A stretch of DNA of 61,553 nt from Candidatus Colwellbacteria bacterium (GTDB lineage Bacteria > Patescibacteriota > Minisyncoccia > UBA6257 > Colwellbacteraceae), in contig JACOWZ010000003.1 of the NCBI GenBank assembly GCA_016176525.1, positions 1-61,553 of the forward strand, in the 5' to 3' direction. This document shows, one piece after another, positions 27,527 through 29,563 of this stretch (its first letter is position 1; each line of letters begins with the position of its first letter). Below the pieces are notes generated by a model. It did not search any database and had not been told where the DNA came from. It saw nothing but the letters and a program-made list of their open reading frames with translations. The translations under genes and the position numbers were made by a program.

Positions 27527-29563
27527 CTAACTCAACAAGTCAATAAACTCTTTTTCGGAGAGTATCTTTACACCTAACTTTTCTGCCTTATCCGCCTTGC
27601 TGCCTGGGTCGGTACCTACTACAATATAACTTGTTTTTTTACTCACGGATTCAGAAACATCACCACCCTGGGCACGGATTTTCTCTTTTGCTTCGTCGCG
27701 CGCCATTGATTCCAACGTACCTGTTAGCACAAAAGTTTTGCCGGCCAACTTCTGACTTTTAGCTGCCGCTTTTGGAACCGTAATTGTAACCCCAACGCGT
27801 TCTAGTTTCTTTAGAAGTGCAATGTTATGTGGATCTTTAAACCAAGAATGAATGCTCTCTGCAACTTTGGGACCGACATCTTGAATACGCTGTAATTCTT
27901 CTATTGATTCTTGATTAAACTTTTCTACAAAATCGCTGATTTTTAATTTTAAATTTGAAATTTTAAATTTTAAATTCCGCGCTAAAAGCGCGGCGGTTTC
28001 TTCTCCAATATGCAGAATCCCCAGTGCATAAATAAAGCGCGGTAAGTCCACCTCTTTTTTCTGCTTGATCTCACGCACCAAGTTTTGTGCAGACTTCTCG
28101 CCAAAACGTTCCAATATTTCTATATCACCCTCTTCAAGAGTAAAGATGTCTGCTGCGTCGCCTATTAGCCCTTCGTCTAAAAAGCGATTTATAATTTTGT
28201 CTCCCAAACCGCGGATATCAAACGCTTTGCGAGAAACAAAGTGCCGGATTGATTCCATAACACGCGCGCCACAGGCACGGTTGGAACAGCGATGAAAAAC
28301 TCCATCCTGCACGATTTTTGAGCCGTCAACAGGGCAAGAACCAGGCATTTTAAACTCACGCTCTTTGCCGCTCCGCAATTTAGGCAACACCATAGTAATC
28401 TTGGGTATTACATCCCCTGCGCGGCTTACAACAACTGTATCGCCAATTTTTAAGCCCAAGCGCTTAATCTCATCATAATTATGTAAAGTGGCGTGGCTTA
28501 TTGTGATGCCCCCCACGGAGACCGGCTGCAGTTCAGCAACCGGAGTTATGGCACCAGTGCGCCCAACTTGCACTTTAATGTTTTTTACAATAGTTGTTGC
28601 TTCTTTTGCCGCAAACTTATATGCAACAGCAGCTCTAGGCGCCTTACCCACAACACTAAGTTCCTCAAAAAGCTTATTATCGTTAATTTGCACCACAATA
28701 CCATCTATTTCGTATGGGATCTTTTCGCGATGCTTCTCCCAGTAATCTCTAAATTTGAAAACTTCTTCCAGTGAGTGCACAAGTTTGTTATGAGGATTGG
28801 TTTTAAAACCTAGCTTATGCAAGATTTCATGCTCTTCGCTGTGTATTTTTTGTCTGACGTCAGTAACAATGTCGTACGCAAAAGAATCCAAGCGGCGCGA
28901 GGCCGTAATTTGCGGGTCAAGCTGGCGTATTGAACCGGCGGCAATATTACGGGGATTTGCGTAAATTTTCTCTCCTTTTTTCTTTTGCTCTTTATTTATG
29001 CGTTCAAACTCTTTCTTAGATAAAAAAACTTCGCCGCGAACTACGAACCTAGTTGGTAGTTTGTAGTGGGTAGTTTGTAGTTTTAAAGGCACCGCCTCAA
29101 TTGTTCTGATATTTTGCGTAACGTCTTCGCCCACCAGGCCATCGCCTCGGGTTGAAGCTTCAACCAAAAATCCATTAGCATAAACTAACTCTATCGCAAG
29201 GCCATCAATTTTAAGCTCGCAATAAAAGTCAATGTTTGTAAGCTTTCTTTTTAAGTAATTTTCTAACCTTTCTATCCAGTCATTTATATCTTCGCGCGAA
29301 AAAGCGTCGTTAAAAGATAGCATGGCGACTTCATGGCGCACTTTTCTAAAACTCTTTAATGGCGAGCCGCCGACTCTATGCGTTGGTGAATCTGGCGTAA
29401 CGAGTTCTGGAAATTCTTGCTCTAAGTCAAAAAGTTCTTTTTTTAGAGAATCTAAAACAGCGTCAGAAACAAGGGATTTATCTAAAACATGATAAGAATA
29501 GCGATATTTATCTATCTCTAGTCTTAGCTTAGCTATACGCTTTTGGGCCTCACTCTTTGTCAT
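27527..29563 (-). CDS. ligA: NAD-dependent DNA ligase
   Basis: Adenylation motif [11 protein letters not shown] fold, Zn finger CPVDGS..C..C, HhH repeats and a C-terminal BRCT ([10 protein letters not shown]). 678 aa. Confidence 0.95.
27944..27976. repeat. 33-nt AT-rich module, copy 2, inside ligA
   Basis: Identical to 3071-3103. Encodes [11 protein letters not shown] within [18 protein letters not shown]. Confidence 0.9.
29050..29084. repeat. Heptamer array TAGTKKG x5 inside ligA
   Basis: tagttgg tagtttg tagtggg tagtttg tagtttt. Encodes [11 protein letters not shown] on the minus strand. Confidence 0.8.

Follow-up and report, generated by a model that had tools for sequence, protein, structure and literature searches.

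What kind of sequence is a tract in which TAG recurs every 7 nucleotides (nt), and how does it come to lie inside essential housekeeping genes? This question is raised by a 61,553-nt stretch of Candidatus Colwellbacteria DNA (assembly GCA_016176525.1, contig JACOWZ010000003.1, positions 1 to 61,553; the whole stretch is hereafter called the window), in which a prediction made from the letters alone had pointed out four such tracts, one in ligA, two in rnhB and one in a MurL-like gene, and had described them as a repeat family of coding sequences. Analysis of the window, of orthologous genes and of a collection of species-representative genomes (596 Gb, both strands scanned) suggests, with a likelihood somewhat above even, that the four tracts belong to a dispersed family of heptanucleotide repeats that resembles the cyanobacterial short tandemly repeated repetitive (STRR) sequences and the TAACTGA repeats, and whose copies within genes are tolerated as translated passengers. 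Judged from sequence comparison, the family appears to consist of arrays of four to five heptanucleotide units (approximately 30 nt), the two strands of which read (T)AGT-K-N-G and C-N-M-ACTA. It occurs widely but unevenly among Patescibacteria (the candidate phyla radiation, CPR) and sporadically in other phyla, and is one of many families of heptamer arrays in these genomes.

Heptamer arrays in the window

All four tracts with TAG at every seventh nucleotide of the plus strand were present as predicted (Table 1), and all of them lie in minus-strand open reading frames (ORFs), each of which reads through its tract in one frame. The array at 2864-2898 indeed comprises five units, but TAGT is not found in every one of them, the third being TAGA. 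A 19-mer, TAGTTTGTAGTGAGTAGTG, is identical between 2562-2580 and 23275-23293. The pattern TAG-N4-TAG-N4-TAG-N4-TAG gave six overlapping matches at four loci of the window, all on the plus strand and none on the minus strand, whereas it was expected only 0.01 times in 100 dinucleotide-preserving shuffles of the window, none of which reached six. The periodicity is specific for 7 nt as well: when 16 or more matches out of 21 were demanded, a threshold fixed for all lags, the window contained seven segments at lag 7 compared with 0, 1, 0, 2, 0 and 0 at lags 5, 6, 8, 9, 10 and 11, respectively. The tracts are real and non-random.

The plus strand of the arrays is free of C, except for one C in 23268-23295, and a single array of the window is therefore unable to pair with itself; moreover, no inverse partner array was detected in the window for any of the four tracts. 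Scanning the window against Rfam revealed five tRNAs only and no known RNA family overlapping the arrays. The GC skew of the window is uniformly negative and nearly all of its genes are on the minus strand, because of which a strand bias is inseparable here from gene orientation.

Table 1. Positions of the heptamer arrays in the window and of the genes that contain them (aa, amino acids).
Feature	Position	Strand	Units or assignment
TAGT tract 1	2555-2582, up to 2586	+	TAGTTAA TAGTTTG TAGTGAG TAGTGTA (GTAG)
TAGT tract 2	2864-2898	+	TAGTGAG TAGTTAA TAGATTG TAGTGAG TAGTTGA
TAGT tract 3	23268-23295	+	TAGTGTG TAGTTTG TAGTGAG TAGTGCG
TAGT tract 4	29050-29084	+	TAGTTGG TAGTTTG TAGTGGG TAGTTTG TAGTTTT
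Sister family (AATTTAA type), rnhB	3071-3105	-	sense AATTTAA AATTTAA AATTTCA AATTTAA AATT; aa 29-39
Sister family (AATTTAA type), ligA	27939-27978	-	aa 530-541
Intergenic heptamer array	3199-3232	none	AATTTTC/AATTTCC type, ~4 units
rnhB	2558-3187	-	Pfam RNase_HII
MurL-like gene	22336-23715	-	NCBIfam NF041275, E = 5e-106, below equivalog cut-off
ligA	27527-29563	-	match to E. coli LigA, E = 3e-171

Distribution of the TAGT family

The 19-mer was found exactly in 99 loci of the species-representative genomes, compared with about four occurrences expected by chance for a uniform 19-mer in a collection of this size. According to the labels of the genome records, 73 of the 99 loci belong to Patescibacteria, representing more than 15 classes: Peribacteria (22 loci) and Saccharibacteria (10), besides Doudna-, Uhr-, Azam-, Campbell-, Staskawicz-, Jorgensen-, Harrison-, Yanofsky-, Buchanan-, Niyogi-, Falkow-, Davies-, Specht- and Andersen-bacteria and others. 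Elsewhere, 11 loci are labelled Gammaproteobacteria/Pseudomonadota, six belong to Bacteroidota-type groups, two to Chloroflexia, and one each to Acidobacteriaceae and Planctomycetota. The loci have unrelated flanks and there are several of them per genome; the source genome of the window, with its 644,793-bp contig, is not among the genomes that contain them. The absence of exact matches from IMG/VR viral contigs means that no phage vector is suggested; the degenerate pattern (TAGTN3)3TAGT gave at least 120 matches in viral contigs and was uninformative.

At every one of the 99 loci the 19-mer is part of a longer array, typically [N]AGTKNG TAGTTTG TAGTGAG TAGTGAG TAG (~30 nt). About 80% of the arrays extend by one further unit on either side of the 19-mer, beyond which the signal falls to ~45%, and the modal length is five units. 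One 30-mer is found without mismatch at 14 sites whose flanks are unrelated, in six or more classes. In 71 unselected arrays, three units in all orders account for 208 of 278 units (TAGTTGG, 79; TAGTGAG, 72; TAGTTTG, 57), and the same three-unit alphabet recurs across phyla and in genomes of 56-68% GC. In addition, each unit junction in arrays of the family carries the tetranucleotide GTAG. Neither a conserved flanking motif nor a target-site duplication was seen around the 99 copies of the 19-mer and the 58 copies of a 32-mer from a sister family (see below).

Ten of the loci are located in metagenome-assembled genomes labelled 'uncultured Gammaproteobacteria' (L122, L135, L140, L142, L152, L153, L157, L181, L193 and L202), with a GC content of 0.32-0.57; several of these loci have multiple arrays and inverse pairs. 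The AT/GT-rich 19-mer is also found in high-GC hosts, namely two Chloroflexia (L155 and L207, 68% GC) and one member of Acidobacteriaceae (L170, 60% GC), and also in the Planctomycetota locus (L218). Such arrays in unrelated high-GC phyla are not explicable by base composition, which hints at horizontal spread or at mis-binned contigs.

Placement relative to genes and reading frames

With the TAG strand taken as the reference for orientation, approximately three quarters of the 99 arrays are intergenic and one quarter lie in ORFs, so that a description as a family of coding sequences was too narrow. Arrays within ORFs were never found in sense orientation, as opposed to 25-32 in antisense orientation. 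Since the TAG strand has stop codons in all three frames, only antisense arrays survive within genes. The four tracts of the window do share one orientation, as had been noticed, but this orientation is forced by the stop codons and therefore says nothing about replication or function.

A long co-oriented ORF ends no more than 60 nt upstream of 53 of the 99 arrays; the array itself supplies the stop codon in 29 of these ORFs, and in the remainder the stop codon mostly precedes the array by 3-8 nt. About 15 arrays are antisense and precede a gene, with 4-22 nt between them and its first possible start codon. At 32 of the 99 loci the TAG array is followed by an inverse array (CTACCAA, CTACTCA or CTACAAA), and long imperfect hairpins of -23 to -63 kcal/mol are predicted for these pairs, some of which enclose an ordinary terminator. 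The order in such pairs is invariably TAG array, loop and inverse array, as expected if convergent genes each carry a sense-oriented array after the stop codon.

Reading frames were also informative. The peptides originally read from the tracts (TTHYKL, NYSLQS and TTLLTTNY) are correct by translation, and the accompanying argument, that the use of different frames points to conservation of DNA or RNA rather than of a peptide, is strengthened by 41 in-ORF copies of the 19-mer in other genomes, which are read in all three frames as LTTHYKL (15 copies), HYSLQT (17) or LLTTNY (9). A pure heptamer array would yield the same cyclic peptide in every frame, and the argument holds because the arrays are mosaics. 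The conserved entity is the DNA and not the peptide.

Sites of the arrays in host proteins

By its LigA homologues, the closest of which is 72% identical, the window belongs to Patescibacteria of the Parcubacteria/Paceibacteria type. The array at 29050-29084, which reads AAAACTA CAAACTA CCCACTA CAAACTA CCAACTA on the sense strand, encodes K161-T171 in a variable loop of the adenylation domain that aligns to 'LKLHGE--NIPAR' of E. coli LigA with a net gain of two residues. This loop is hypervariable among 120 orthologues (0 to ~40 extra residues), in which related peptides, such as ENLKFKIP, PNSKFQIP, ATSYKLP and TNYQLP, abound. At the DNA level, one orthologue (P0016) has a decayed TAGT-family array in the loop, in the same phase as in the window, and the loop of a Harrisonbacteria LigA (L158), likewise in phase, reads CTACTCA CTACTCA CTACAAA CTACCAA CT, to be compared with CTACAAA CTACCCA CTACAAA CTACCAA CTA in the window. 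Another orthologue (P0014), again in the same phase, shows a perfect 14-nt duplication with TAGC in place of TAGT in every unit, and a fourth (P0010, from locus L223) carries a (TTTAGGG)-type array at this site.

The array of P0010 is plant-telomere-like (TTTAGGG/AAACCCT type) and provides the codons for 'LNPKPHTLIP'. The 683-aa LigA ORF of the Harrisonbacteria locus (JAHFLF010000002.1) contains at least three different heptamer arrays, of the TAGT (in the orthologous loop), AGAATTA and AAAGTTG types.

The array at 23268-23295 encodes RTTHYKLHT in a linker that precedes the SLLLFGGGKDS motif of the MurL-like protein. The linker is hypervariable and similar in length in 120 orthologues, and thus the array adds no net insertion. 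In RnhB, 2864-2898 encodes about F97-L108 (FNYSLQSINYSL), a 7-aa insertion relative to Thermotoga RNase HII; the segment is equal in length in patescibacterial orthologues, many of which show a 7-aa-periodic N-Y-K-L...N-Y-K-L, and it has a predicted local distance difference test score (pLDDT) of 93-98 in an AlphaFold model. The tract at 2555 begins 3 nt past the stop codon of rnhB, spans this codon and encodes the C-terminal tail STTLLTTNY*, whose counterparts in RnhB orthologues differ in length and sequence. The mean pLDDT of the RnhB model is 92.9, compared with 55 for tail residues 201-209 and 75 for the loop of aa 29-39.

A comparison of orthologues had been proposed to look for gain or loss. 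The tracts are not clean insertions, given that loops and linkers of similar length are found in orthologues; rather, they occupy hypervariable loops, a linker and a C-terminal tail. Many orthologues have heptamer arrays of another kind in the same places.

Pfam and NCBIfam scans of 44 window proteins revealed ordinary housekeeping functions (rnc, nusB, dnaE, thrS, gyrB, gatA/B, Mur enzymes and others), and no transposase, reverse transcriptase, HutP-like protein or RAYT was found among them. The window also encodes a type IV pilus cluster (PilB/T/C/D/M) and ComEC, both of which had been recognized before, as well as P-type ATPases.

Sister families and the preference for 7-nt units

Besides the TAGT tracts, rnhB and ligA each carry an array of the AATTTAA type, and 33 nt are identical between the two (3071-3105 in rnhB and 27944-27976 in ligA). 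The ligA copy corresponds to a 12-aa insertion relative to E. coli LigA and is identical over 36 nt to the same loop of the orthologue P0010 (67% protein identity), where the flanking codons differ: the array forms a run of 12 identical codons, whereas identical codons make up only 29% of the two genes and no other such run is longer than six. This identity exceeds what coding explains. In RnhB, aa 29-39 are modelled by AlphaFold as a small beta-hairpin, and most orthologues read N-x-K-F-x-I-x-N-x-K-L there, with positions i and i+7 covarying. Residue i equals i+7 in 38 of 68 orthologues compared with 14.9 in shuffles, and none of 2000 shuffles reached 38; these sequences are related to one another. 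This i/i+7 identity and the 14-nt duplication of P0014, with its TAGC throughout, are both signs of concerted changes of units. An exact 32-mer of the AATTTAA family was found in 58 metagenome contigs at ~35 different sites, and its copies (L224-L281) mostly lie within long ORFs of unrelated proteins, with sharp boundaries.

More generally, each 100 kb contains 11 lag-7 arrays in the window, 27 in four LigA loci that were not chosen for their arrays, and 20-23 in the remaining loci after masking of the selected copy, whereas a 50-kb E. coli control contained none; in CPR DNA, other lags are 5-30 times rarer than lag 7. More than 100 heptamer unit types were detected in the lag-7 arrays of these genomes. 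Only 30% of the unselected lag-7 arrays are inside ORFs, although ORFs constitute 84% of the DNA.

Two further arrays of the window lie between genes. The one at 3199-3232 is located in the spacer of 83 nt that separates rnhB from the divergent dnaE (assigned by Pfam), where it possibly overlaps the promoters of both genes. A period-7/14 array (GTTAATT GTTATAT GTTAATT GTTA; 16966-16994) lies between two divergent tRNA-Met genes (16850-16922 on the minus strand and 17008-17080 on the plus strand).

Comparison with known repeat systems

The cyanobacterial STRR heptamers, said to go back to work by Mazel in 1990 and Vioque in 1997, are reportedly dispersed tandem arrays whose function is unexplained. 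They are also said to occur occasionally in functional genes, such as the cyanobacterial RNase P RNA gene. STRRs and long simple sequence repeats (LSSRs) resemble the TAGT family in being dispersed tandem arrays with the heptamer as the favored unit length; however, the units of STRRs are homogeneous within each array and the arrays are mostly intergenic. The TAACTGA heptamer direct repeats of marine Beggiatoaceae, Cyanobacteria and Bacteroidetes (MacGregor 2015, PMC4679880) share with the TAGT family the 7-nt unit, a small copy number (2-6 per set for TAACTGA), a patchy distribution across phyla and the lack of an evident vector. In both, the forward strand has stops in all frames and forward copies overlap only the ends of ORFs, reverse copies are translated as a 7-aa repeat at the periphery of proteins, and many copies adjoin start or stop codons. 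Unlike TAACTGA, the TAGT family has a different unit and mainly patescibacterial hosts, is a mosaic of three units rather than one, frequently forms hairpin-forming inverse pairs (a single indirect repeat was reported for TAACTGA), and occurs in enzymes that are essential and conserved, at positions that their orthologues have in common. What unites LSSRs, STRRs and TAACTGA repeats is also seen here: at least three head-to-tail 7-nt units occur above chance, the arrays are dispersed over unrelated loci of the window and related genomes, and they are mostly non-coding, with the stop strand at ORF ends only and the other strand translated in tolerant parts of proteins. The TAGT family may be considered a further case of the known heptamer repeats, unusual in its mosaic units, its inverse pairs and its presence in essential enzymes, where it lies in conserved loops. 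A literature search brought up no account of heptamer arrays (STRRs included) in CPR bacteria.

Several other systems show partial resemblance. Rickettsia palindromic elements, which PMC1779305 mentions and which are credited to Ogata in 2000, are reportedly selfish palindromes of 100-150 bp that are inserted in frame into protein genes and translated. The TAGT family is likewise a short repeat that is translated within protein genes, but the window arrays are 28-35 nt in length, non-palindromic, and bring little or no net insertion relative to orthologues of the clade. The small dispersed repeats of Nostoc, which Elhai is said to have described in 2008, are reportedly 21-27 nt long, mobile in appearance and associated with arrays of heptamers. 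Unlike the TAGT family, whose mobility is putative, they are not heptamer arrays themselves. A GTAG tetranucleotide stands at the head of repetitive extragenic palindromic (REP) sequences. REP/REPIN elements, which are mobilised by RAYT transposases and occur as inverted doublets and many singlets (Bertels & Rainey 2011, PMC3116915), are similar to the TAGT family as short dispersed repeats with inverted doublets, which give hairpins after genes, and with many singlets. However, a single TAGT array is not palindromic and TAGT arrays also lie in genes, whereas REPs are extragenic; the window arrays are not self-folding imperfect palindromes, and the inverted doublets found at about a third of the loci elsewhere are seen at none of the four window tracts. 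The G-quadruplex-forming GGGNATC repeats of Xanthomonas and Nostoc (Rehm 2015, PMC4692102) also have a preferred copy number (four), lie near stop codons (within ~50 bp) and are depleted from coding sequences, but G-runs are absent from TAGT units, which within genes lack G altogether on the sense strand. Finally, the UAG triplets of the HutP site, UAG-N4-UAG-N4-UAG in the 5' part of a terminator hairpin (PMC2425495), have a spacing identical to that of the TAGT arrays. HutP is a Bacillus protein acting on one operon, and three or more UAG spaced by 4 nt do not occur on the host transcripts of the window, where the UAG strand is antisense to all host genes; they do occur in sense-oriented arrays located after genes in other genomes.

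Origin of the arrays and alternative explanations

If the tracts are copies of a dispersed heptanucleotide family, arrays would arise and be renewed by copying or short-patch conversion among dispersed copies, to which the exact 30-mers and 32-mers at unrelated sites point, and units would also be renewed by misaligned pairing within an array, which would homogenise a locus and keep its units alike (concerted evolution). Selection would then filter the sites, since the TAG strand has a stop in each frame, and the distribution of the arrays indicates three niches: after genes, where the array often gives the stop codon and may form a hairpin with an inverse copy; before start codons; and, in antisense only, inside genes at segments that tolerate any sequence. 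The window copies would belong to the third niche and would be read as innocuous peptides of the (Q/L)TT(N/H)Y(K/S)L type in a surface loop of LigA, a loop and the tail of RNase HII, and an interdomain linker of the MurL-like protein, most likely having no function of their own. Among the origins listed in the original prediction, a small mobile module comes closest to this explanation, with spread across loci being the part that we infer. Several observations weigh against a passenger family. No pair of empty and filled sites was found in close relatives, target-site duplications and terminal motifs were not seen, and neither a transposase nor a reverse transcriptase was among the 44 scanned window proteins. 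Moreover, the LigA array keeps CTAC in each unit, together with 16 identical nt, relative to the Harrisonbacteria orthologue at saturated divergence, for which selection acting on DNA or RNA would be no worse an explanation than neutral homogenisation. The three units also recur across phyla and at 56-68% GC, where a purely neutral element would be expected to drift, and the preferred length of ~4.5 units hints either at a function that depends on size or at an element of defined size.

Three other explanations deserve attention. It is possible, though only tentatively so, that the arrays are unrecognised heptamer 'micro-elements' of ~30 nt, comprising several families in Patescibacteria and sporadically in other phyla, which are written or copied by horizontally shared machinery. 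In that case, the 30-mer and 32-mer at dozens of unrelated sites would represent fresh insertions rather than convergence, and in-frame writing into essential genes could be a major source of lineage-specific protein loops in CPR bacteria. It appears rather doubtful that the arrays, those inside genes included, serve as functional cis-elements for a conserved factor, which might be either a HutP-like ring RNA-binding protein on UAG-N4 triplets or a DNA-binding protein, and which at gene ends would attach to the hairpin's 5' arm and thereby modulate termination or the stability of the mRNA. The recognition motif of HutP is exactly UAGNNNNUAGNNNNUAG (PMC2425495), and the preference for 4-5 units, the invariable position of the TAG array in the 5' arm, the conservation of three units across phyla including high-GC genomes, and the retention of CTAC in each unit of orthologous LigA arrays would all be accounted for. 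Nevertheless, the mRNA of the window carries CUA instead of UAG, leaving only antisense RNA or DNA to be read; the 5'-arm rule is automatic for convergent genes with sense arrays after their stop codons; no HutP-like protein is among the 44 scanned; the coexistence of many unrelated heptamer families in one genome would require many factors; and arrays at orthologous sites decay or are replaced. A role as a protein- or RNA-recognition array, which had also been suggested, is possible. Independent polymerase slippage on 7-nt units in place, with no transfer between loci and with identity arising by convergence, is unlikely. Slippage has been proposed as the cause of long simple sequence repeats, among which heptanucleotide repeats are the most abundant class in many bacteria (Mrazek 2007, as quoted in PMC4679880), and it would agree with the diversity of more than 100 unit types, with homogenisation within arrays and the perfect 14-nt duplication, and with different unit families in identical loops of different lineages. 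However, it predicts homogeneous arrays of broadly varying length, whereas mosaics with a sharp size mode are observed; convergence is very unlikely to have produced either the 30-mer at 14 unrelated sites or the sister 32-mer, including its single stop-avoiding C, at ~35; and a change by one unit within a gene would shift the frame.

The remaining explanations were rejected. A DNA-uptake signal for competence based on type IV pili and ComEC, similar to the DNA uptake sequences and uptake signal sequences of Neisseria and Haemophilus, had been put forward in the original prediction and is highly improbable. Pilus genes and ComEC are encoded in the window, inverted pairs at gene ends and copies in permissive parts of genes are reminiscent of such signals, and two of the host genes serve genome maintenance. 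Known uptake signals are single, strongly over-represented motifs of 9-12 nt that occur approximately once per kb. TAGT arrays occur only about once per 15 kb in the window, where single TAGT units outside arrays are at or below expectation (0-4 observed versus 1-7 expected per strand); identical sequences in unrelated phyla and the many further heptamer families alongside also speak against it. It is very unlikely, too, that 7-residue peptide repeats (QTTNYKL and NLKFKIS) are selected as surface elements of beta-hairpins and that the DNA periodicity is secondary. Polar and hydrophobic residues do alternate, the RnhB loop is modelled as a small hairpin, and similar peptides are found at matching loops of many orthologues, but one DNA sequence is read as different peptides in the three frames used by the in-ORF copies of the 19-mer, three quarters of the copies are non-coding, identity at the DNA level is above what codon degeneracy allows, and a hairpin does not require i/i+7 covariation. 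Phase variation, in which changes of unit number would switch the host genes as in contingency loci, is hardly credible: tandem repeats do lie in coding sequences, and a 7-nt change would shift the frame; however, the degenerate, non-identical units suppress slippage, none of the host genes (ligA, rnhB and one for a cell-wall enzyme) is a surface or antigenic gene, and all copies are in frame. Simple phase variation had already been judged unlikely, and the mosaic units and essential housekeeping hosts agree with that judgement.

Implications

Heptamer arrays, an old unexplained feature of a few bacterial groups, are pervasive in Patescibacteria (~1 per 4-9 kb), and one family keeps its three units across classes and even phyla. 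The variable loops of LigA and RNase HII carry arrays in many lineages, evolving in concert, and offer a concrete DNA-level source for some of the CPR-specific protein insertions. These arrays constitute a large comparative data set for testing whether heptamer repeats originate by slippage, conversion or mobility. With regard to annotation, low-complexity peptide segments of this kind should be regarded as repeat DNA and not as functional motifs.

Other features of the window

The gene order of window positions 29560-39431 is conserved in three other loci (L220, L222 and L223; 66-67% LigA identity), in which PilM, PilB, PilT, PilC, pilins and PilD are followed by small unknown ORFs, ligA and gatC/gatA. 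At 21135-23715, a murD-type ligase is directly followed by the MurL-like epimerase homologue, which matches NF041275 below its cut-off; this pair suggests that the peptidoglycan D-Glu of this Patescibacterium may be supplied by the L-Glu ligation/epimerisation route known from Xanthomonadales. In addition, two other short tandem repeats, ATAATGCAAAAACA x3 (period 14) and ATTAATGCAAGC x3.3 (period 12), were detected at 38252-38292 and 60494-60533.

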